From assembly GCA_964447495.1 (NCBI GenBank), contig CAYUTF010000093.1, forward strand, positions 1-11,877: 11,877 nt of DNA. The letters run 5' to 3'. Numbering within the stretch: position 1 is the stretch's first letter; every line of letters starts with the position of its first letter. Origin of the DNA: an uncultured archaeon. Its GTDB lineage: Archaea > Asgardarchaeota > Lokiarchaeia > Sigyniarchaeales > SOKP01. The notes beneath the pieces were generated by a model. It was given only the letters and a program-made list of their open reading frames with translations, was not told where the DNA came from and ran no database searches. Positions 172 through 11,761 of this stretch are shown one piece after another. The position numbers and the translations under genes are program-made.

Positions 172-786
172 ATGTTTGTCGCTCAGCATTTAAGTTCCTA
201 TAAAATAAAGATTTTAATAGTAGGAGCTTCCGATTCTGGGAAGATTGCTTTATGCTCAAAGTATACCAATGGATTTTCAAAAATATTTGAGGAATCTCTT
301 GGGGTTGATATCTTCGTTAGGGAACAAGAAAATCCCGACGGTGAAGAAATAACCTATGCGTGCTGGGTTTGTGCTCCTCAAAAAAGATTTGAATATTATT
401 GGCCAAAATTTTTTAGAGGCGCTTCAGGCGCATTTATCATGTTTGATGTTACCAACAGAGATAGTTTTAATGATATACTATTCTGGTGCAAAACAATTAG
501 AAAGAATTTAGGATCAATTCCTATAATTTTATTAGGAAATAAAATTGATATAAAAAGCAAACGAGTTGTGAAGTTTGAAGAAGCTAAAAAGATTTCTGAG
601 CAATTAAAGCTTGCTGCGTATATAGAAATATCGGTAAAAGAGGATATTAATGTGTCTGCATCGTTTGAATTATTAAATGAAATAATATATAGCTTCTTAA
701 ACTCTGATACGGGAGATTTTAATCCTAAAGACATACAAAAATCCATTAAATTAAAGATAAATAAATTAAATCTTGATCATTGGTAA
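172..786 (+). CDS. Rab-like small GTPase (Ras superfamily) with degenerate G1/G3 motifs
   Basis: KILIVGASDSGK (G1), SLGVD (switch I, cf. TIGVDF), WVCAPQKRF (cf. WDTAGQERF), FFRGASGAFIMFDVTNRDSF (cf. YYRGAxGxxxVYDVTxxxSF), LLGNKID (G4), EISVK (G5). No C-terminal prenylation cysteines. Confidence 0.9.
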   Translation: MFVAQHLSSYKIKILIVGASDSGKIALCSKYTNGFSKIFEESLGVDIFVREQENPDGEEITYACWVCAPQKRFEYYWPKFFRGASGAFIMFDVTNRDSFNDILFWCKTIRKNLGSIPIILLGNKIDIKSKRVVKFEEAKKISEQLKLAAYIEISVKEDINVSASFELLNEIIYSFLNSDTGDFNPKDIQKSIKLKINKLNLDHW

Positions 787-815: not shown

Positions 816-905
816 CTATATCTTTGATTAAATTGAGTTAGATATATATAACATTTGAATAAAATTTCAAATTATTAATATAAAATACTTTTAATTTTGA
901 TTAAT

Positions 906-2642
906 ATGAAAAACCTCATTGATAAGAACTTATTACAACAAGTATTCAATTCAAATGAATTTAAGGGATGGTTATTATCCCGAGGTTGGTTTGGAAATAA
1001 AACCACACTATCAAGTTTAATCTTTGATGTTTCTATAAAATATTATGAATTAATTTCAGATCACATTGTTTTACTTGTAATTGAGATAAAAACTCAAACA
1101 TTTGTGAAGAATTATTTTTTACCGCTGATTTACTATGAAAAAATAGATGATATTCTTGAGAAGAGGGAGAAAGTAAGTGAGAATATAGTTAAGTTAACAG
1201 AAAATACATTTAGCAAGATGCTAGCAATATATTTTCATGATGAGAAGGAAGAAAGAGTAATTACACTCAACCTTATCGAAGCAGAATACTGCGCTTTCTT
1301 TTGGAGGAAAATTCTTTTTGATAAAAAGCTATCTGAAAATTTTCCGCTCCATTCATTACGTTTAACGCTCTTTACCGAACAATTTGAAGATGAGATAAAT
1401 ATGAGGAAAGTGCAAACCTTAATAGAAGCGGGACTGTATCCTGATAGATATGAATTTTCACTGCAGCAAGTTGGGGGGGCAAATGCTACTAATTTACTCT
1501 TTCGTATTAATATTTTTAATAAAAAAACACCTAATGCACAAGCTTATTCTTTTGTATTAAAATCATATAAAAACTATTCCCAGGGATTAGAAACAAAATC
1601 TTTATATGTTCTTGTCAAAAATAATTTCCCCAATTCACCAAAAATCTATGGGACAATTAGATTCTACGATAATGAGGTAATAGGAATACTCCAAAATATA
1701 GAAAATGAAGGAAATCTTGGTGATATTTATTGGAATGAAGTTAATTTCATGGTAAATGATGTGATTAAGGATGTGAATGCAGATTATTCATATCTCCATA
1801 ATGATGATGAAATTCTCGATATTATTAAAAATTGTTGTAGGGAGAGTTTGATTGTCTCAAAAAAAATAGGACTCGAGATTAAAAATTTACATAAAGCATT
1901 AATTCTTCCAGAAATCTCCCAGTATTCTAAACTAGTTGTCAATAGTCAAGAATATTTAAATACATATAATCAGAAACTAATCACGATGGTTTTAAAAATA
2001 CAGGAGAATATGAAGAGAAAGGGAGGGACTATGTTTTATTCATCACCTAAAATAAGGGCTATCATAATAGATATTCAAGATATCATAGAGAAATACCGTT
2101 CAGAATTTATATCTGATCACATAAAAATCCAACCGGTTCACCAAGACCTTCATATGCAAAAAATTTTATTTAGTAAGATTGATAATGACTATAAATTTTG
2201 GTTCATTGACTTTGAGGGAGATCCACAATTGTTATTGGAAGAAAAAACCCAAAAATTTCCGATAGAGAAAGATTTAGCTTCGTTTTTGCGCTCACTAAGT
2301 TATATTAAGTTTTATACATTACTCAATTTTATTGAAAAGAAAATAATTGAAAAAGACGAATATAGAGTTCCCGAGGAATTTCTTTTTAGTTTATTTTTCA
2401 GAAAAGCAGCTAAAATATCTCAGAAAGATAAGACCTTAGAAACGCTATTATATATCTTAAATATGTGGGAGCGCCAAATGATGAATAAAATTTTTGATAA
2501 AAGTTTAAAAATTAATTTTACATTGATTAACTATTTCACCATCGAAAGAGCTTTACATGAGTTAGATTATGAACTTCTCTATAGACCTAGTAAAATAATC
2601 ATTCCGATACTTGGTTTGAAAGAATTGATTGATAAAATATAA
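906..2642 (+). CDS. Maltokinase (Mak/Pep2, TreS C-terminal)-like kinase, APH/ePK-like fold
   Basis: N-cap WLLSRGWFGNK (cf. WLxxQRWFxGK), FVLKSYK (ATP-binding Lys), VHQDLHMQKIL (cf. IHGDLHLGQVL), FIDFEGDP (cf. IIDFEGEP), KDLASFLRSLSY (cf. RDVAGMLRSFDY), IERALHELDYELLYRP (cf. LEKAxYExxYExxxRP). ATG 906 is preferred over the in-frame TTG 897. Confidence 0.8.
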   Translation: MKNLIDKNLLQQVFNSNEFKGWLLSRGWFGNKTTLSSLIFDVSIKYYELISDHIVLLVIEIKTQTFVKNYFLPLIYYEKIDDILEKREKVSENIVKLTENTFSKMLAIYFHDEKEERVITLNLIEAEYCAFFWRKILFDKKLSENFPLHSLRLTLFTEQFEDEINMRKVQTLIEAGLYPDRYEFSLQQVGGANATNLLFRINIFNKKTPNAQAYSFVLKSYKNYSQGLETKSLYVLVKNNFPNSPKIYGTIRFYDNEVIGILQNIENEGNLGDIYWNEVNFMVNDVIKDVNADYSYLHNDDEILDIIKNCCRESLIVSKKIGLEIKNLHKALILPEISQYSKLVVNSQEYLNTYNQKLITMVLKIQENMKRKGGTMFYSSPKIRAIIIDIQDIIEKYRSEFISDHIKIQPVHQDLHMQKILFSKIDNDYKFWFIDFEGDPQLLLEEKTQKFPIEKDLASFLRSLSYIKFYTLLNFIEKKIIEKDEYRVPEEFLFSLFFRKAAKISQKDKTLETLLYILNMWERQMMNKIFDKSLKINFTLINYFTIERALHELDYELLYRPSKIIIPILGLKELIDKI

Positions 2643-2646
2643 ACTT

Positions 2647-3246
2647 TCATTTTATATTTGCGAATTTGTAGGAATAATGGGAAGATGTTTTATTTTCGGG
2701 CTGTATCTCCTTATTATATTGATCCCGCAGACTTTTACTTCCTTTAAGTTCTTCTTCAATAAATCGCGGATTAAATTCTTTTTTTTTAAACAATCTGTAA
2801 GTGAAAGCCTCAACAAATCGTTGGGGTCCAAACTTTTTTGTTATTAAAATGGAATTTTCCTTGTCACTAAAAAAGGGAAAAAATCCTAAACTATCACATA
2901 AATTTAACTTATATTCAATGTCATCTTCTTTCCCATTAATTCTTCCAATATCATTAATAAAACGAGCTAATTTATCTCCAAGTTTAATTTGTTCCTCCTC
3001 ATTAAGTTTTGTTATGATTTTCCTTAAGTAACTACGTTTTATTATAATGAAGTCTCGATTATTTAATGATTTAATAGAAGACTTTTGTTTCAAGACGTAT
3101 TTTGATAATTCTAAATAATTACGAATTAAGTCTGCTTTAGATACTCCTAGCCTATTTCTCATATAATCCAGATGATCATTCAATTCACTATCTATTCGAA
3201 TTGTTATTATCTTCTGATTACTTTTTGATTCCTTTTTTTGACTCAA
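2647..3246 (-). CDS. Ribbon-helix-helix (CopG/MetJ/Arc-like) DNA-binding protein with an uncharacterised C-terminal domain
   Basis: N-terminal IITIRIDSELNDHLDYMRNRLGVSKADLIRNYL fits the RHH pattern (beta ribbon, helix, GxSxxxLIR helix). The TTG start is supported by GGAG on the minus strand (3257-3260), 10 nt upstream. Confidence 0.8.
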   Translation of the reverse strand: MSQKKESKSNQKIITIRIDSELNDHLDYMRNRLGVSKADLIRNYLELSKYVLKQKSSIKSLNNRDFIIIKRSYLRKIITKLNEEEQIKLGDKLARFINDIGRINGKEDDIEYKLNLCDSLGFFPFFSDKENSILITKKFGPQRFVEAFTYRLFKKKEFNPRFIEEELKGSKSLRDQYNKEIQPENKTSSHYSYKFANIK

Positions 3247-4281: not shown

Positions 4282-5427
4282 CTATTGAGTTAACATAGAA
4301 TTAATAAGGGTATTCTTGATCTTCTCAAAATGACCTAAATTAACTTTTAGAAGATCTTGAAGTGCTTCAGTTAACCCAATCTTACTTATTTTTTCGGTAA
4401 TGGTAAAATATGGGCTTTCCTTTATTACTTTTATCAATGCCTTATTTTTTTCTATACCACTTAAGAGAAAAGTTTTAGGTTTAATCTTCTCAGTATTAAG
4501 GATCCTCTGTATAATGGCAAGTAACATTGTATCAAATGTTATTCTTAATACAATTTCTCTATCAAAGTCCTTTTTTATAGGAAGAAGATATTCCTTAAGT
4601 AATGATATTGATTGCTCGAATAATTGAATGGAATCAAATCCAAGGTTTTCGATTTTTTCTTTAAAGTCAGGATTATTGTTAATACTTAAACAGATTGAAG
4701 AAATTACCTGATATTCAGCAATAAAGTGGATAAATCGTGCTTTTGCATTGAGCATTGTCTCCTTAGATTCCGCGTCGTCTAATAAGTCTCCTAAATTATC
4801 AAGAGCTTTTCGGAAGTAGGATGAGATTACATAGAATTTCTCAGAAGCGGCTTCTAATTCATTATTGTTTAATAATAAAAGAGCTCTTTTCTCTTCTTCT
4901 TGATAGAGTTCTTCAAACTTATTTATTTTCATTACCGCTCTTAAGATTAAGTGTTTACCAAGATCTTTTGTTTGGTGAGCCTTTTCAAATGATTGCCCTG
5001 CTTTTAATAATAAAATTGAGGCTAAATTTCGGTATTCATCAGGATCTGTTTCATATAAATAATCTGATGCCTTACTCCAACTTTCACCAGCGGTTTCCCA
5101 ATCATTCATTCTATAAGATATATTTCCCAGTTGAATTAAAAGTTTTGCTGAAATTTCATATAATTTGAGTTCTTCTGTTTTTCTAATAATGGATTTCAAT
5201 CGATAAACAGCTTGAATATTATTTTTAAATTGCAATATGATTTGCGTGATCCGGATAAATAATTCATCTAATTTAATATAACTGCCTAAATCTAGATAAA
5301 TTTGAGCCGCTTTTTCATATATTTTTATAGCCTCATCACCGTTTCCCTTATCAGCAAATGTTTCGGCTCTATCTATCAATTTTATTGCTTCTATCTCTTT
5401 TTCTTCATCGTCATTATTATTATACAT
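4282..5427 (-). CDS. TPR/alpha-SNAP-like all-helical repeat protein
   Basis: Repeated helical-hairpin motifs AIKIYEKAAQIYLDLG, SAKLLIQLGNISYRMNDWETAGESWSKASDYL, ASILLLKAGQSF and LEAASEKFYVISSYF; 381 aa uninterrupted ORF. Confidence 0.65.
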   Translation of the reverse strand: MYNNNDDEEKEIEAIKLIDRAETFADKGNGDEAIKIYEKAAQIYLDLGSYIKLDELFIRITQIILQFKNNIQAVYRLKSIIRKTEELKLYEISAKLLIQLGNISYRMNDWETAGESWSKASDYLYETDPDEYRNLASILLLKAGQSFEKAHQTKDLGKHLILRAVMKINKFEELYQEEEKRALLLLNNNELEAASEKFYVISSYFRKALDNLGDLLDDAESKETMLNAKARFIHFIAEYQVISSICLSINNNPDFKEKIENLGFDSIQLFEQSISLLKEYLLPIKKDFDREIVLRITFDTMLLAIIQRILNTEKIKPKTFLLSGIEKNKALIKVIKESPYFTITEKISKIGLTEALQDLLKVNLGHFEKIKNTLINSMLTQ

Positions 5428-5537
5428 TTAAGTAATCACTATATCAAGATGGAATTTTTAAATTTTCATTCTAATACCTTTTTAAAGAAATAAGCTTTAT
5501 TTAAGTTTTGGCTATAAATTAATTGATTTCTAAATAC

Positions 5538-6422
5538 TTAGAATGAATGAAAAAGCTTAATATTATGATCTTTTAGCATATTTCCAAATGCTCTTGCTTG
5601 ATAAACTGATGCAAAGCATTCTTTGGCATCTTCTATAGCCCCATAAAAGAGAAAATTAGAAAATAAGCTTGCAATAGACATTATACTAGCTCTTCGATAG
5701 CGTGTATGAAATCGAGCATTTAAACGAGGAGAAGAATATTTAAACAAAAATAAACTTGGAGCGGTACCTACGGGTACTTTAAGAGACTTACTTATAATTT
5801 GTTGGGTTTCCAGAATATGAGCTAAGCTTTCTAAATCAATAACTCCCCCATCAATTAAAATTCTTTGGACACCTCTTTCTTTTAATCCTGAAATCAAACT
5901 TTGATTATTTGGTTGGCTTTTATCTGTTATATATGCAAATCTTTGAGTAGAGGACATATTTGCTGAACCAAGAATTAAAATTACAATATTTTTAATTTTA
6001 AAGTTTTGAATTGCATTAACTTCCTTTGGATTTTTTAAATTTGAAATAGAATTGTAAATATAATCATTTGGCTCAATTCCTTGGTCATGGAGATATTGAA
6101 TTCCTGCCATTCTTGCCTCAAAAGCACCACCTAAGACAAAGGGGGGATTAAAGTTTCCTAAGTAAAATTTAAGATACTCAATCATTGAATTAGGCTCATA
6201 TGCAGAGATTTCTATCAAACTAGGCAATTTGTATTGCTCAGATAATGCTTTTTGAGCATTAATTCTTTTTTTCGCTTTTTCTCGATCGAACTTAGCCGAA
6301 TTTCCTCTCTCTATTAAGGTTTGACCTTGATAAAAAATAGTCCCAATTAAAATAGGGGGAAGATCAAAATTGCCATACCCTAATTTAAAGTCTCCAATAT
6401 AAAAAAATGAATTTTCAGGCAT
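5538..6422 (-). CDS. MtrH/MtgA-family pterin-binding methyltransferase homologue (divergent, stand-alone)
   Basis: PPILIGTIFYQGQTLI...FDREKA (cf. MtrH PTVLxGTIFYxxHKIV...FDxxxA), YIYNSI, ILIDGGV and FLFYGAIE (cf. DFxLYGPIE). The 294 aa length is typical of the family. Confidence 0.8.
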   Translation of the reverse strand: MPENSFFYIGDFKLGYGNFDLPPILIGTIFYQGQTLIERGNSAKFDREKAKKRINAQKALSEQYKLPSLIEISAYEPNSMIEYLKFYLGNFNPPFVLGGAFEARMAGIQYLHDQGIEPNDYIYNSISNLKNPKEVNAIQNFKIKNIVILILGSANMSSTQRFAYITDKSQPNNQSLISGLKERGVQRILIDGGVIDLESLAHILETQQIISKSLKVPVGTAPSLFLFKYSSPRLNARFHTRYRRASIMSIASLFSNFLFYGAIEDAKECFASVYQARAFGNMLKDHNIKLFHSF

Positions 6423-6531: not shown

Positions 6532-7725
6532 TTAAAATAAATGTAGCTTAACACCACAATTTTTACATCGGTTATTTTGTAAATCATCAAAACATGATTT
6601 ATGGTATAAAGTTTTACAATTTCCACACCGAATTAATTCTTGACCTTCTTCGAATATAAAATTACAAACTGGACATGATCCAAATACGTCATCTTCTTTT
6701 AAATCATCATATTTAGTAAGGATTGCTTCTGAAATTTCTGATCCTTTTGATTCAGGTCTTTCTTGTATACGCGGCTTTACTAAACTCGTTAGTTTTCTTG
6801 CTTGAGAAACTTCAGTAGGAATTTTTAAAAGGTAAAAACAATGAGGACATCTTACTGTTCCTGCTCTCCGCATCTTACTATCTTTTTGTGAATCTGCCCA
6901 TGCCGCTAAACAATGAATATGAAATGGTGTTTGACAGTGAGGACAATATCTACCACTAATAAAGAAGGAACTCTTGGTATAAGGATTTGTATCAGAAAAG
7001 CAAATAGAGCATTTTTTATAATCTGCTAAACCTCTTATTTGCAATAAACGTTGTTCTTGATCCTTTGTAAGATCTTGAACTCGTAGTAAATCAGCAGATA
7101 TTTTCCTTAAAAATTTAGGACTTTTCATTACTGATGCCTTACTATCACCATAGGTTTTGATGTTTGAATTGGCTAATTCTTGGACAGCTCTCATTAATGA
7201 TTCAAAATCGTTATTATAGTGATATGTTCCATTCGTAAGATCACTTATCTTTTTAAGAATATTAGAGGTATTTCCTCCTCCTAAGCGAAAAGAATCGATT
7301 TTTATATTTAATCCTTGTGCTAATCGCGCCATTTTTATTGGATCTACAGACATCTTTGTATAATTACCATCAGTTATTAACACTATTTTCGGAGTTTTTG
7401 CTGCGATTTTTCTTAATTCTGCAATAATCATTTTTATTGATAATGCCAATGCTTCTCCTAATGCAGACTTACCGGATAACTCTAATGAATCTAAGCTATC
7501 ATATAATAACTCTTTCGTGTTTGTAAACTCTACAAGTTTTTTTGGTTTATCTGAAAATTTAATAATAGCGAAATAACTAGAAGTATCTTCTAAGAATCGA
7601 TCATTTATTAGTTTTTTAACTGCGTTGATACTTGTTTGTAACCGATTTGGAGGGTAATCCGTTCGATACATTGATCTTGAGGTATCTATACAAATTATAA
7701 TATTTTCCGGCAATCTTTCAGACAA
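6532..7725 (-). CDS. VWA domain protein with two C-terminal C4HC3 RING/PHD-like zinc fingers (p44/Ssl1- or Rpn10-like VWA; putative E3 ligase)
   Basis: IIICIDTSRSMYRTDYPPNRL (MIDAS DxSxS) and VLITDG. Finger 1 is CSIC...CPHCQTPFHIHCLAAW...CPHC (6838-7011). Finger 2 is CPVC...CGNCKTLYHKSC...CKNC (6556-6675). TTG start. Confidence 0.85.
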   Translation of the reverse strand: MSERLPENIIICIDTSRSMYRTDYPPNRLQTSINAVKKLINDRFLEDTSSYFAIIKFSDKPKKLVEFTNTKELLYDSLDSLELSGKSALGEALALSIKMIIAELRKIAAKTPKIVLITDGNYTKMSVDPIKMARLAQGLNIKIDSFRLGGGNTSNILKKISDLTNGTYHYNNDFESLMRAVQELANSNIKTYGDSKASVMKSPKFLRKISADLLRVQDLTKDQEQRLLQIRGLADYKKCSICFSDTNPYTKSSFFISGRYCPHCQTPFHIHCLAAWADSQKDSKMRRAGTVRCPHCFYLLKIPTEVSQARKLTSLVKPRIQERPESKGSEISEAILTKYDDLKEDDVFGSCPVCNFIFEEGQELIRCGNCKTLYHKSCFDDLQNNRCKNCGVKLHLF

Positions 7726-7826
7726 GGAGTAAAAACCTTTATAATTCTATTCTTAAAACGCTAGTAATAATTCTAATTTTTATATGTAACAAAAAGAATA
7801 AATAATTATGTTTTTTTATCAAATGT

Positions 7827-7840
7827 AAAGCTTTAATTAT
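7827..7840 (+). promoter_or_regulatory. Putative BRE/TATA-like element upstream of the GTPase-roadblock gene
   Basis: AAAGCTTTAATTAT lies about 80 nt upstream of ATG 7916. A second candidate, AAAAACCTTTATAA, is at 7731-7744 on the + strand. Confidence 0.3.
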
Positions 7841-7915
7841 TAGAAATTTCATATTAATTAAAACTTTTTTTGATTAGCAAAAATTGAACTTACTAGGATT
7901 CTAGTTGATAAAATT

Positions 7916-9124
7916 ATGTCAGAAAATGATACTAAAAATGTAAAAGTTAAAGATTTCTTTAAAAGAACAGTTATTATTAATGAAATCGACGAAGTATTAG
8001 CCTTTAAACCAGATACTCTAATAGGTATTGATCAAGTGTCTTCTGATACATTAATCGATAATAATATTAAAAATATTGAACAATTAGCAAATCTTCAAGT
8101 CGATAATCTTCCCGATATCAAGGAGATTCCGACAATAATTTTAATTAAATGGGTTAAAACTGCACAAGTTATCGTTCGTGCAATTAAGGAACAACTAAAA
8201 TCTCACAAGAAATTGTTGATGATTGGGTTAGATAATGGGGGAAAGACGTCCATTTTAGCAGTACTCCAAGATAGGTTCTCAATAATTAAATCGCTATTAC
8301 CCACAAGGGGAGTAAAAAGAGAAAAATTGGATTTTTTTGGATATCCTATAATTTCTTGGGATCTTGGAGGACAAGTGCAATATCGAGAAAAACTGTATTT
8401 TAATCGCCCAGAATTGTTTTTCACTGAAGTGGATTTGGTATTATATGTCGTAGACACGCAAGATTCTGAAAGATTTGTAGAATCTGCCAATTATTTCCGT
8501 CAAGTATTAAAAGCTCTACAAGATTTAAATGAAGCTCCACCAGTTTTAGTGGTACTTAGTAAAAGTGATCAAGATTTAAGAACGACACGAGAATGGCAAA
8601 ACAATATTAATGCGATAAAAACCAAATTTTCTCATATCATAAATGAATATGAAAATGTTTCAATCGATTTCGCAGACACCACTATCTATCAAAAAGAAAC
8701 CATTATGCAGATGTTTAGTACCGCATTAAAGAAAGTGTCAGACACTTCGGAGATTATCGAAAATATTCTTGAAGATTTTACAATAACAATTGAGGGTAAA
8801 GCAACAAGCTTAATTTCCATGGATGGCTTAATTTTTGGTAGTTATAATACAACGGATACTGATGAGGCGTTATTAAATAACACCGCTCTGATTATGCAAA
8901 CTCTTTCTAATTTTCATAACTCAATAGGTCTTATAAGAGAAACATCAATAACACTAGATTTCCCTGTAAATAGGTTTGCAATAACAGGAGAAAAGTTGTT
9001 TGAGTATTCGGATTTACATATTCCAGTCTATTTATGGCTTCTTTCTGAGAATCCTGACTTATTATACGAAAAAATAGATTATTTCCGCGAACAATTATTA
9101 CCCTTAATTAATATGTTCTTATAA
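7916..9124 (+). CDS. Arf/Rag-like small GTPase fused to an N-terminal HhH-like domain and a C-terminal roadblock/longin-like domain
   Basis: G1 GLDNGGKT, G2 PTRG, G3 WDLGGQ, G4 SKSD, G5 TTIY. The C-terminal ATSLISMDGLIFGS is a roadblock-like beta hairpin. The N-terminal TLIGIDQVSSDTLIDNNIKNIEQLA resembles RadA/Rad51 N-terminal-type HhH. Confidence 0.85.
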   Translation: MSENDTKNVKVKDFFKRTVIINEIDEVLAFKPDTLIGIDQVSSDTLIDNNIKNIEQLANLQVDNLPDIKEIPTIILIKWVKTAQVIVRAIKEQLKSHKKLLMIGLDNGGKTSILAVLQDRFSIIKSLLPTRGVKREKLDFFGYPIISWDLGGQVQYREKLYFNRPELFFTEVDLVLYVVDTQDSERFVESANYFRQVLKALQDLNEAPPVLVVLSKSDQDLRTTREWQNNINAIKTKFSHIINEYENVSIDFADTTIYQKETIMQMFSTALKKVSDTSEIIENILEDFTITIEGKATSLISMDGLIFGSYNTTDTDEALLNNTALIMQTLSNFHNSIGLIRETSITLDFPVNRFAITGEKLFEYSDLHIPVYLWLLSENPDLLYEKIDYFREQLLPLINMFL

Positions 9125-9409: not shown

Positions 9410-11761
9410 TTAGGTTCTACAGAGTCGCTTAATTAAAGTAGGATCAACGATTTCTCTTGGTTTCCAGTTTCTGTCTTTAAGGAATTGCGTAATTTCATCT
9501 TTTAGATTGATAGGAATATCGGCTTCTACTCGAATGAACCTCTCTAAATCATTTGGAAATTGTACTCCCTTATATTTTCTTTCTAAGTCAATCCAATGAG
9601 AGAGCTTTATCATTCTTCCTTTGGAGTTATCAGCAGGTCTTAAAGCTAATTTAGCAACTAAACATATTGCTTGTTCTATTGTTTCAGCTGTAGTTAATAA
9701 GTGTTCCGGTCCCGGACCAATAAGGACATCCGGAGTCCCATCGCGTGCATTAAATACTTTCCATGTATCCTCATCATCAGAACGTCCAATATACATTCTT
9801 CTATATTCTGCAGCATGCGGCCCACAAACCGCTGGTACACCTAACCCATTAGCTCCAGAAGCAATACTGGCAGCCTTCTGAGACATCGCACCCCAAGCGA
9901 CTCCAACCGCACCAACACGATTTAGGATATAATCCGCAATTTCTTCGAAATTCCCTCGTAACGGACGTCTAGCAAAGATATTGGCAACTTTACATGCTGC
10001 TCCAGTAATATGTGGATTGGACACACATGAACCAACATTTACTAATCCACCACGATCAAAATCTCCTGGGAAACGGTCATATAAGGTTTTTCCATCTTCA
10101 TCCTTAACTAAACCAATATCCATCGCACCGCATCCAGAAACTACAACAATGTAATTTCTTATCAGAAATTCCTCTGCCATCATATACAATTCTTGAATTT
10201 CTTTTCCATAGGCCGGACAACCGATTATTGCAACAATACCAGGAATCTCTCCGAGCACAATTGGAGCACCAACATTACGAATTTCTGTATCTTGAATAGG
10301 ACCTCTTCCTACTCTCATATTGAAAGTTTCATTTCTGATCTTATCTCGTCCCGCAAACATTATTAGTGTCAATGGTGAGACCCCTTTCATACAATCTGCT
10401 TCACATCTACCACAATCTAAACAACTATCAAACGCTTCTGCCAATACAGAAAAGTCTCCTTCTTTAGCTAATCTTACACCCTCAACTAAAGGAAGATCAT
10501 TTGGACAGTTTCGTTGACAATTACCACATCCATTGCAATGATATGCCATATCAATACAACCTTGCTTGTCAGGAATACCACTTCTCGCTTTTCTAATTGG
10601 TTTAACTTTAATTGCTGTTTCAACAGCTACAATACCAGCCTTAACGGGATCTAATATTAAAACACCAGGAACTTTTCCACTCACCAGATCTTCAATGATT
10701 CCTTCAGCAGGATCATCTGTTCTGTCTGGTAAACCTCCCATATTTTTCTCATTTGTCGCAATAAATGGAGCTCCAACTAATTGAGCTTGTTCAAAACTAC
10801 GAAGATTTACACATTGCTCATCCACCATAACAACATCAGCCAAGCCTGAACGTATGAAAAACATTTGTCGCGACATTGAACCAACAACTTTTGCACCATC
10901 ATAATATCGGGTGAGATCAAGCGCAGTACAACAAATCGCACCTACATCAACTTTATCATTTAAATCCTTCTCACGAATATAATCTACTAATTCAATTCCC
11001 GGAGCAACATTATGCCCAATCATCAAAATAGATGCTTTATTTTCAGTATCCATTGTTCCCATGCCTAATTTTACAATAGGGACATCTGCTTCGCCCATTG
11101 GGAACCCATAAGCTGCAATTTGGACGGCATCGGCGATCTCCATACCAACCTCGTCAGCTAATCCCGCAACAAAACTCTTATTTTCATAATCCAAATAATG
11201 CGACTCTTGACCCGTGTGACCTGCAGCTAATAAGTGTGTAATTGTATAATGGACCCATTCCATTGCTGTCTCCAAGTCCTCTAAGGTTTCTGGCTTCATG
11301 CCAACCAGAAGCCGCGTTATAGGCATTTCGACCGCGATATTGTTACCGAAATTAATTGGAACGTTCCCGTATTTCTGTTTAAGCCAATGAAGAAGATGAT
11401 CGCCGTGGGCGCTATGACAAGCCGCTCCAATCGCACAAGCTATCTCTACAATTCGAGCTTGTTGCGTCTCCATATTTATTCCGCATGCTCCTGTTCTACC
11501 TTTGGAAAGATTGCATTTCCCGTACGTACATAAGCAGCACATATCGCAAATGGGCATATAATAAGGTTTATATCGATCCATTAGTTTGAAAAACCAATTA
11601 CGTAGAGTCGGTATATGTGGCTTCGGTGTGGGACCCATTTCTTCCCATTCCGATTCGTCGCCTTCACTTTTTATCTTGCCCGCAGTAAACTCAAATCCTT
11701 TGATTGTTCCGAGCGGCCCTTTATAAGAATCAATTTTGATTTTAGTACCTTTTTCAGTCAT
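9410..11761 (-). CDS. cdhA: CO dehydrogenase/acetyl-CoA synthase (ACDS) complex alpha subunit, archaeal Ni-CODH
   Basis: CDMCCLCTYGKCNL...GACG (D/B clusters), HSAHGDH, C-cluster ligand motifs GHN, ICCT, DEQC, IIGC, SGC and GSCVSN, SQKA Lys, two ferredoxin motifs CNGCGNCQRNCP and CLDCGRCEADC (archaeal E/F clusters), and a C-terminal DPT; 783 aa. Confidence 0.97.
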   Translation of the reverse strand: MTEKGTKIKIDSYKGPLGTIKGFEFTAGKIKSEGDESEWEEMGPTPKPHIPTLRNWFFKLMDRYKPYYMPICDMCCLCTYGKCNLSKGRTGACGINMETQQARIVEIACAIGAACHSAHGDHLLHWLKQKYGNVPINFGNNIAVEMPITRLLVGMKPETLEDLETAMEWVHYTITHLLAAGHTGQESHYLDYENKSFVAGLADEVGMEIADAVQIAAYGFPMGEADVPIVKLGMGTMDTENKASILMIGHNVAPGIELVDYIREKDLNDKVDVGAICCTALDLTRYYDGAKVVGSMSRQMFFIRSGLADVVMVDEQCVNLRSFEQAQLVGAPFIATNEKNMGGLPDRTDDPAEGIIEDLVSGKVPGVLILDPVKAGIVAVETAIKVKPIRKARSGIPDKQGCIDMAYHCNGCGNCQRNCPNDLPLVEGVRLAKEGDFSVLAEAFDSCLDCGRCEADCMKGVSPLTLIMFAGRDKIRNETFNMRVGRGPIQDTEIRNVGAPIVLGEIPGIVAIIGCPAYGKEIQELYMMAEEFLIRNYIVVVSGCGAMDIGLVKDEDGKTLYDRFPGDFDRGGLVNVGSCVSNPHITGAACKVANIFARRPLRGNFEEIADYILNRVGAVGVAWGAMSQKAASIASGANGLGVPAVCGPHAAEYRRMYIGRSDDEDTWKVFNARDGTPDVLIGPGPEHLLTTAETIEQAICLVAKLALRPADNSKGRMIKLSHWIDLERKYKGVQFPNDLERFIRVEADIPINLKDEITQFLKDRNWKPREIVDPTLIKRLCRT

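Follow-up and report, generated by a model that had tools for sequence, protein, structure and literature searches.

A lokiarchaeial vWA protein with two RING-like fingers: p44-like in layout and a predicted ubiquitin-ligase adaptor

The subject of this work is a gene on the minus strand of an 11,877-nucleotide stretch of DNA from an uncultured archaeon of the Lokiarchaeia (contig CAYUTF010000093.1 of assembly GCA_964447495.1); the whole stretch is called the window in what follows. The gene encodes a vWA domain followed by two cysteine-rich fingers, and we refer to its product as the vWA-RING protein. The gene is genuine and strongly conserved among Loki-type Asgard archaea, and it encodes a soluble protein of three modules. 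An earlier reading of the DNA letters (the sequence-only reading) had described a vWA domain with two C4HC3 fingers, and all of the strings and spacings that it gave are present in the translation of 6532..7725. The features of the gene, and its divergent neighbour, are given below with the evidence used to place each of them.

6532..7725, minus strand: whole gene, vWA plus double-RING protein (list of open reading frames, translation, homologues)
7156..7707, minus strand: vWA domain, residues 7-190 (Pfam, AlphaFold2 model, VIA-align)
7672..7686, minus strand: metal-ion-dependent adhesion site (MIDAS) motif D14-x-S16-x-S18, with S87 and D119 as further candidate metal-site residues (conservation)
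7030..7128, minus strand: conserved helical linker, residues 200-232, FLRKISADLLRVQDLTKDQEQRLLQIRG (model helices 203-209 and 221-231; conservation)
6817..7011, minus strand: finger 1, residues 239-303, a C4HC3 cross-brace RING of FANCL/listerin/NSE1 type (conservation, fold, profile)
6679..6816, minus strand: variable linker, residues 304-349, with a helix at 304-315 followed by a low-confidence stretch (model, alignment A1)
6535..6678, minus strand: finger 2, residues 350-397, C-terminal, C4HC3 and RING-like (Pfam, profile, fold)
7916..9124, plus strand: Rag/Gtr1-like GTPase, divergent neighbour (Pfam, PDB match, synteny)

According to the list of open reading frames and the translation, the gene is a single frame of 397 amino acids (aa) with a TTG start at 7725 and its stop codon at 6532-6534. 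This start is supported because many homologues of 397 aa (P0003 and others, with 100% coverage) align from residue 1. The database copy of the protein (P0002) has 379 aa and begins at Met19, so that the DxSxS site is cut off in that record; the same mis-called start is probable in the other database members of 379 aa. The vWA domain includes the N-terminal stretch ICIDTSRSMYRTDYPPNRL (residues 11-29) and the C-terminal stretch ILKKISDLTNGTY (residues 156-168). Finger 1 has the form C239-x2-C242-x18-C261-x2-C264-x4-H269-x2-C272-x20-C293-x2-C296 and contains PFHIHCLAAW...CPHC, and finger 2 has the form C351-x2-C354-x12-C367-x2-C370-x4-H375-x2-C378-x8-C387-x2-C390.

Conservation was followed in two alignments: A1, with 34 diverse family members that are 21-72% identical to the query, and A2, a closer alignment of 10 orthologues that was also used for the search of related loci. 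In A1 no member deviates from the eight ligands of finger 1 or from W276, and the conservation of I241 and P294 reaches at least 90%; in finger 2 the one ligand out of eight that is not invariant is C378, which at least 90% of the members share. This conservation of the ligands of both fingers is far beyond chance. In A2, conservation is at least 90% for D14, S16 and S18 and complete for D119, and many columns of the helical linker at 200-232 are invariant or nearly so. The linker at 304-349 varies in length and sequence in A1, and in the AlphaFold2 model its predicted local distance difference test (pLDDT) value falls below 50 at residues 316-328. Of the 34 members of A1, 27 have the D-x-[ST]-x-[ST] pattern; the 7 without it include P0122, whose record is missing the N-terminus. 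The Pfam matches at E<=0.001 across the same 34 members are Ssl1 in 20, Prok-RING_1 in 16 and PHD in 8, and PHD_NSD matches 6. The tree of these members shows two clades, each with support 100/99, one holding the gene of the window and the other a full-length paralogue from the same genome (contig C11), which is 32-35% identical and has different gene neighbours.

The word-indexed protein search identified 319 homologues at E<=0.001, and the best 120 have 370-403 aa and are 58-100% identical. Those of the 120 that have a name are annotated as 'VWA domain-containing protein' or 'YegL', and their sources are metagenome-assembled genomes (MAGs) of Lokiarchaeota/Promethearchaeota type; one family record (P0024) carries a bacterial label. 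The exhaustive search of 1.84 billion representatives gave 1189 matches at E<=0.001; their number falls to 98 at E<=1e-10 and to 33 at E<=1e-30. Matches weaker than about E 1e-12 are proteins of 290-340 aa with a vWA domain that starts near residue 90, and Pfam assigns them to the BatA type.

The range of the family was surveyed in 400 genomes of the phylum, of which 160 others belong to the class of the window and 239 others lie outside it. The full-length architecture with all three domains was found in 159 of the 160 genomes within the class and in none of the 239 outside it. Some match at E<=1e-10 occurs in 18 of the 239, in every case at 1e-11 to 1e-13, and in the five of these 18 genomes that were checked the 53 listed matches cover the vWA domain or finger 2 alone and never both. 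We therefore regard the architecture as confined to one class. The weak vWA matches in other Asgard classes were considered as split forms of the family and rejected; they are different proteins (VWA_3, with FHA and zinc-ribbon neighbours). Longer relatives with open frames of 612-724 aa are present in three genomes from other families of the class (loci L139, L140 and L141 in G123, G128 and G127, respectively). They match the vWA domain and finger 1 only (profile positions 3-318/327), and their C-terminal parts have no Pfam match and thus give no functional hint.

The vWA domain belongs to the branch of Rpn10, p44 and BatA, with an apparently complete MIDAS. Pfam matches it with VWA_2 (66.4 bits), VWA (61.1 bits) and Ssl1 (PF04056, 37.3 bits against a cut-off of 27), while Tfb4 stays under its cut-off of 27 with 23.9 bits; in NCBIfam there are only partial BatA-like and tfb4 matches, far under their cut-offs. 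The Ssl1 model was also run on 16 BatA-like control proteins, 7 of which it matched at E<=0.01; the scores ranged over 16.8-28.0 bits and exceeded the cut-off in 2 cases. The search of the solved structures with the single sequence gave 26.7 bits for a BatA-like chain, 21.5 for p44, 21.4 for Rpn10 and 18.8 for BatB, which is an ambiguous ranking. With the family profile the matches to solved structures are the following.

Rpn10: 69.3 bits, E 3.1e-18, residues 6-168
p44: 60.8 bits
BatA-like 4rck: 51.2 bits
BatB: 40.0 bits
BatA-like 4jdu: 37.5 bits
BABAM1: 36.9 bits
yeast Ssl1: 36.5 bits

The reverse control used a profile of the 16 BatA-like proteins, which scored 144-237 bits on its own kind and 44.5 on Rpn10; p44 was not among its 60 best matches, the lowest of which has 30.1 bits. 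By this control, Rpn10 and p44 are closer to the Asgard family than they are to BatA-type proteins. The direct comparison of the family with the same BatA-like profile by hhalign is also strong (probability 99.9, E 1.9e-34, 178 columns, 30% identity). BatA-type proteins share the start motif D-x-S-x-S-M...D..P-x-R-L with the vWA-RING protein, but they have no RING fingers, and the vWA-RING protein does not have their N-terminal membrane domain: PF07584 is not among its Pfam matches and its vWA domain starts at residue 7, while PF07584 is found in 9 of the 16 BatA-like controls at E<=0.01.

The model of the vWA domain is of good quality, with pLDDT mostly 86-97 per block of ten residues and two blocks at 78-79. 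Its closest folds are given below with the Foldseek TMt and root-mean-square deviation (rmsd), followed by the VIA-align Z score, rmsd and number of aligned residues.

Ssl1 4wfq: TMt 0.85, rmsd 1.8 A; Z 25.3, 1.9 A, 184 aligned
p44 6ro4_D: TMt 0.58, rmsd 10.3 A (282 columns); Z 25.2, 1.7 A, 182 aligned
p44 5of4_E: TMt 0.88, rmsd 1.9 A; Z 24.6, 1.7 A, 180 aligned
BatA-like 4jdu: TMt 0.73, rmsd 4.9 A; Z 23.8, 2.0 A, 171 aligned
Rpn10: TMt 0.72-0.80, rmsd 2.5-3.9 A (several entries); Z 23.7, 2.0 A, 181 aligned (8j4a_B)
BatB 3ibs: TMt 0.74, rmsd 5.6 A; Z 23.1, 2.0 A, 177 aligned

The lead of p44/Ssl1 in this ranking is only about 1.5 Z units. The ESM Atlas did not discriminate when it was searched with the vWA domain alone, as archaeal, bacterial and eukaryotic Ssl1 clusters were all at 0.89-0.90. 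The earlier proposal of a relative of p44/Ssl1 or Rpn10 is therefore supported in part: both score above the BatA-type structures with the family profile and p44/Ssl1 is the top fold over the whole length, but the margin for the vWA domain alone is small and the BatA-like profile is close.

The AlphaFold2 model of the whole protein of 397 aa has a pLDDT of 84.3 and a predicted template modelling score (pTM) of 0.69. When it was searched with Foldseek, p44/Ssl1 chains took every one of ranks 1-17; the best E was 1.9e-17, approximately 400 columns were aligned, and the sequence identity to these structures was 14-19%. The rmsd of these whole-length matches is above 20 A, which means that the domains are placed differently. 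The ESM Atlas, which we take as a lead only, gives eukaryotic GTF2H2 clusters (0.90, 0.89 and 0.87) next after the family's own clusters at 0.97.

Finger 1 is a RING of the FANCL/listerin/NSE1 type. The profile matches that indicate this are marginal (NSE1 at E 0.0025, FANCL at 0.0072, listerin at 0.013), and when HMMER aligns the finger with FANCL and listerin, all eight ligands correspond, as do the Ile that follows the first Cys and the Trp located four positions beyond ligand 6. For the comparison of folds, residues 200-397 were folded alone (pLDDT 80.2) and the structures were searched without the Foldseek filter and scored by VIA-align Z. Finger 1 fits the FANCL RING in its E2 complex (4ccg_Y) with Z 6.6 and an rmsd of 2.3 A over 65 aligned residues, the FANCL RING 7kzp_L with Z 6.4 and 1.7 A over 63 residues at 24% identity, and listerin with Z 5.3. 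Foldseek itself gave nothing at E<=0.001 for residues 200-397; its best rows, at about E 5e-3, are ligase RINGs. The description of this finger as FANCL-like with the characteristic Trp thus agrees with both sequence and fold. The positions of I241, W276 and P294, the latter being the Pro after ligand 7, are those that contact the E2 in c-Cbl and FANCL. The idea that the second zinc site of finger 1 corresponds to the small zinc ribbon of p44 was dropped: in the whole-length VIA-align comparisons with p44, only about 65 aligned residues come on top of the vWA domain with its 184, and the C-terminal RING alone provides 58. Nothing speaks in support of the idea.

Finger 2 is as similar to RING-H2 ligases as it is to the C-terminal RING of p44. 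Pfam gives zf-RING_2 with 29.4 bits (cut-off 27.3) and Prok-RING_1 (PF14446) with 29.0 bits (cut-off 29.1), and PHD (PF00628), which matches finger 2 only, is under its cut-off with 23.6 bits against 24. The profile of the C-terminal part finds the Arkadia RING at E 2e-6 and the PZP domain of JADE1 at E 2.8e-5 among the solved structures, and p44 is not among the 60 best matches listed. The closest folds are ZNRF1 (Z 7.3), RNF165 (7.0) and RNF12 (6.7), together with the C-terminal RING of p44 (8ebs_E 327-386; Z 6.8, rmsd 2.2 A, 58 aligned) and fungal p44ct, the one bound to p34 (Z 6.2), so that RING-H2 ligases, at Z 6.5-7.3, and p44 C-terminal RINGs are tied within about one Z unit. The likeness to the RINGs of the Rag regulators SEA/GATOR2 is weak (Z 4.8 and 4.7). 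The C-terminal domain family of p44, C1_4 (PF07975), is not among the Pfam matches of the vWA-RING protein at E<=0.01, and the genome-wide search with PF07975 at E<=0.1 pointed to two other places and not to this gene.

The genome that carries the gene is 98% complete, with 3.8 Mb in 223 contigs, and it contains a ubiquitin system, as had been anticipated for Asgard archaea. One operon (contig C62) carries a ubiquitin-like protein (Ubl), an E1 (ThiF, 197 bits), an E2 (UQ_con, 90.5 bits) and a JAB protein, and a second E2 is located near an E1-like gene on another contig (C67). On C67 (locus L012) the E2 is at 5191-5700 on the plus strand (169 aa, with HPN and Cys motifs) and the E1-like protein of 527 aa at 7337-8920 on the minus strand; the two genes are about 1.6 kb apart and form a second possible conjugation pair. 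The operon on C62 (locus L011) ends with a 386-aa protein without a Pfam match (10121-11281, plus strand), which follows JAB in the place that a small RING protein takes in other ubiquitin operons of archaea.

The sequence-only reading had also suggested a complex prediction with the E2s of the genome. We folded the E2 of the operon (alignment of 14 rows) together with residues 200-397 of the vWA-RING protein (17 rows) in three runs and with three controls, and obtained an ipSAE of 0.33 (runs 0.35, 0.33 and 0.00) against 0.00 for the best of the three controls. The result is positive but a weak pass. The ipSAE mark is reached by 116 of 157 solved complexes and by 2 of 215 mismatched pairs, and at values of 0.60 or less by only 18 of the 157 solved complexes and by both of the passing mismatches. 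The runs agreed in at least 0% of the contacts with a partner pLDDT of at least 68, and no interface was reported. Because RING-E2 complexes have already been solved, the pass may reflect memory or likeness alone.

Taken together, we predict that the vWA-RING protein most likely acts in the E1/E2 system of Lokiarchaeia as a ligase adaptor of RING type, for ubiquitin or a ubiquitin-like protein, and we would give this a probability of roughly one half. The vWA domain would bind a partner or substrate with its MIDAS face through an acidic residue, finger 1 would recruit the charged E2 by the conserved surface of Ile241, Trp276 and Pro294, and finger 2 may make a protein-protein contact, possibly for dimerisation or for docking of the kind seen with p44's C-terminal RING, or may offer a second site for an E2. 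The DxSxS motif is kept in the orthologue clade, which fits a vWA domain that binds a ligand. An Asgard cascade of E1, E2 and RING E3 has been reconstituted in vitro with a different, small RING protein (bioRxiv 10.1101/2023.07.25.550441).

Several known ligases resemble the vWA-RING protein in part. FANCL, listerin (Ltn1) and NSE1 share with finger 1 the ligand spacing, the aligned Ile and Trp and the fold, but the vWA-RING protein has neither the ELF and DRWD domains of FANCL nor the HEAT repeats of listerin. The small RING E3s of the Asgard and Caldiarchaeum cascades are comparable through the score of finger 2 on Prok-RING_1; they differ in having a single RING and in being encoded in ubiquitin operons, while here a vWA fusion of 397 aa with two fingers is encoded elsewhere. 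The plant vWA/copine-RING ligases RGLG and WAV3 combine a vWA-type domain for partner binding with a RING ligase domain in one chain, but they have a single RING and the domain order of WAV3 is different. We found no description of an Asgard vWA-RING or p44-like protein in the literature, a 2011 paper on prokaryotic RINGs and the catalogues of Asgard genes being possible exceptions. The term 'TFIIH-like' in PMC9258230 refers to a RAD25-type helicase family and not to p44, and PMC13734099 mentions RING E3 ligases among Asgard-eukaryote structural clusters.

A number of observations weigh against a ligase adaptor. The gene is neither part of the ubiquitin operon, found on a different contig, nor close to it or to the second E2; its neighbours in the window are a Rag-like GTPase, an MtrH-like methyltransferase and a tetratricopeptide repeat (TPR) protein. 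Directly behind its last Cys, finger 1 has Phe or Tyr and not the Arg/Lys 'linchpin' that matters in many active RINGs. Some RING folds function only as scaffolds, among them those of p44, GATOR2 and NSE1. Over the whole length, the closest neighbours both by structure and by language model are p44, which acts mainly as a scaffold. The 7 of 34 family members without DxSxS indicate that metal-dependent binding is no family-wide requirement. The complex fold with the E2, as described above, passed weakly, with one of its three runs at 0.00 and no interface.

A first alternative is a non-catalytic scaffold of the p44/Ssl1 type, in which the vWA domain would bind and regulate a helicase such as the XPD-like protein of the genome and the C-terminal RING would dock on the vWA domain of the paralogue as p44 does on p34, the family being a true relative of the vWA subunits of the TFIIH core. 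The likeness to p44 (GTF2H2, Ssl1) is considerable: a vWA domain, a zinc module and a C-terminal RING-like domain stand in the same order in a protein of similar length, p44/Ssl1 provides the best whole-length fold match (all of Foldseek ranks 1-17) and the two highest Z scores for the vWA domain, and finger 2 fits the p44 C-terminal RING, including the p34-bound fungal form, nearly as well as it fits ligase RINGs. The Ssl1 score of 37.3 bits compares with at most 28.0 in the 16 BatA-like controls, and the nearest clusters in the ESM Atlas other than its own are GTF2H2, again as a lead only. The genome also encodes an XPD-like protein (PF06733, 118 bits), the only TFIIH partner that was sought, as well as the full-length paralogue.

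There are also differences from p44. The middle module of the vWA-RING protein is a full C4HC3 RING of FANCL type with eight ligands and conserved E2-contact residues, in the position where p44 has a central small C4 zinc ribbon between its vWA and C-terminal domains (the words 'GTF2H2 zinc ribbon' occur in the name of an ESM Atlas cluster). The vWA-RING protein keeps the MIDAS DxSxS, has no C1_4 match and is confined to one archaeal class, full-length members being absent from the 239 other genomes of the phylum. For the vWA domain, p44 leads the BatA-like (23.8) and Rpn10 (23.7) folds by about 1.5 Z, its profile score is exceeded by that of Rpn10 (69.3 against 60.8 bits, with yeast Ssl1 at 36.5), and the BatA-like profile aligns at E 1.9e-34. 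As both paralogue clades are confined to one class, their split need not match the split of p44 and p34. We consider a p44-type scaffold unlikely on this balance. Rpn10 (PSMD4) is the highest-scoring solved relative of the family profile and its vWA fold is similar, but RING fingers stand where Rpn10 has its ubiquitin-interacting motifs (UIMs), and no UIM family is among the Pfam matches of the vWA-RING protein. Identity as an Rpn10-like receptor was rejected on the missing UIM match in Pfam. The protein is p44-like in layout, and we do not file it as an orthologue of p44 or Rpn10.

For the comparison of gene neighbourhoods, 133 relatives were found in species-representative genomes, and 80 of their loci were kept; all of these are from MAGs labelled Promethearchaeota/Promethearchaeia, with other Asgard names or as uncultured archaeon, in agreement with the Asgard origin guessed in the sequence-only reading. 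Some of the missing neighbours are due to short contigs. The conserved neighbours are listed here by the number of loci in which they occur.

MtrH-like gene, downstream and co-directional: 77/80
Rag-like GTPase, upstream and divergent: 74/80
TPR gene: 73/80
71-aa gene: 68/80
ArsR: 58/80
CdhA: 57/80

The Rag-like GTPase of the window is a protein of 402 aa that is extended by about 95 aa at its N-terminus; it matches Gtr1_RagA in Pfam with 77.2 bits and is related to a crystallised Loki Rag-like GTPase (PDB 8yl2, E 1.1e-34). The spacer between the two divergent genes is 190 bp. The same pairing is found at L136, in a different family of the order, with each of the two genes only 37% identical to its counterpart in the window; there is no Rag-like gene within the 1.5-kb flanks at L133-L135, from three other families of the class.

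These data raise the possibility that the vWA-RING protein is a partner of the divergent Rag-like GTPase (an effector, a regulator or an anchoring factor), with or without ubiquitin transfer, in which the vWA domain or the linker helix would read the nucleotide state. The adjacent and divergent arrangement in 74 of the 80 loci, its persistence at L136 and the relationship of the neighbour to 8yl2 favour such a partnership, and the weak likeness of finger 2 to the SEA/GATOR2 RINGs is a hint only. It is nevertheless the whole neighbourhood that is syntenic, including the MtrH-like gene and CdhA, and since unrelated metabolic genes are kept too, gene order alone shows no functional link. The absence of the Rag-like gene from the flanks at L133-L135 and the different neighbours of the paralogue in the same genome also speak against it. 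A Rag partner is likewise improbable in our estimate, and the ligase adaptor remains the reading that we prefer.

Several other genes and observations belong to the description of the window. The MtrH-like methyltransferase (NCBIfam subfamily, 181 bits with a cut-off of 287) and a TPR protein of 381 aa lie behind the vWA-RING gene on the same strand (4282-6422, minus), with gaps of about 110 bases. The CdhA gene (9410-11761, minus strand) encodes the alpha subunit of CO dehydrogenase/acetyl-CoA synthase (TIGR00314, 1059.6 bits) and has a G+C content of 0.36-0.41 against 0.22-0.32 in the rest of the window. At the other end there is a small GTPase of the Ras family (172-786, plus strand; Pfam Ras, 113.7 bits), adjoined by a gene for a protein of 581 aa (897-2642, plus strand) with a maltokinase-like C-terminal third (TreS_Cterm, 76 bits, far under the cut-off) and followed by a ribbon-helix-helix protein of 199 aa (2647-3246, minus strand) for which the model of the aCcr1 cell-cycle regulator gives a weak score (17.6 bits, cut-off 60). 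DNA of the window is present in several salt-marsh metagenome runs. One salt-marsh metatranscriptome run contains two contigs of 151 bases at an identity of at least 99% and a depth of 2, located at 6941-7086 in the vWA-RING gene and at 5710-5860 in the MtrH-like gene; the depth of 2 and possible carry-over of DNA make this too thin for a call of expression.

The sequence-only reading had further suggested that the protein could bear on the origin of the TFIIH core or of proteasome-receptor subunits. Direct ancestry of these subunits is a possible reading, and a disfavoured one, because the architecture is restricted to one class and neither C1_4 nor a UIM was matched. The presence in one Asgard class only also speaks against a simple vertical ancestry of TFIIH or proteasome subunits. 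In a bolder form, which we hold to be quite doubtful, the family would be the surviving archaeal stock of p44/Ssl1 and p34/Tfb4 (perhaps also of the vWA domain of Rpn10): the TFIIH scaffold would have begun as an Asgard vWA-RING ligase that later lost its E2 binding, the middle RING would have decayed to the zinc ribbon, and the line would have been lost, or not sampled, in the other Asgard classes. Very improbable, finally, is that the protein is unrelated to ubiquitin or TFIIH and is either an ordinary vWA adaptor of BatA/MoxR type that happens to have zinc fingers or a histone-tail reader of PHD type: the hhalign result (probability 99.9), the BatA-type proteins of 290-340 aa that the single-sequence search reaches beyond the family, and the PHD spacing of finger 2 with its PHD score, the PHD_NSD matches (6/34) and the JADE1 PZP match point that way, but there is no PF07584 match and no gene for a MoxR-type ATPase within the window, the BatA-like profile is far weaker on Rpn10 (44.5) and p44 than the family profile (69.3 and 60.8), the PHD score is under its cut-off, and finger 1 matches ligase RINGs and not PHD fingers.

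The prokaryotic roots of the vWA subunits of eukaryotic TFIIH and of the proteasome lid are unclear and have been sought in Asgard archaea. Here a near-universal protein of Lokiarchaeia joins a vWA domain of the TFIIH/proteasome branch to two RINGs, one of which keeps the E2 surface of a ligase. Should the vWA-RING protein prove active as a ligase, an archaeal ubiquitin system would contain a substrate-specific E3 whose docking domain can be recognised, and the protein would offer a handle on the modified targets. The fixed pairing with the gene of a Rag-like GTPase provides a concrete candidate partner, and because cultured Lokiarchaeia exist, the biochemistry is within reach. If phylogeny places the family beside p44 and p34, the origin of the TFIIH core would become testable.

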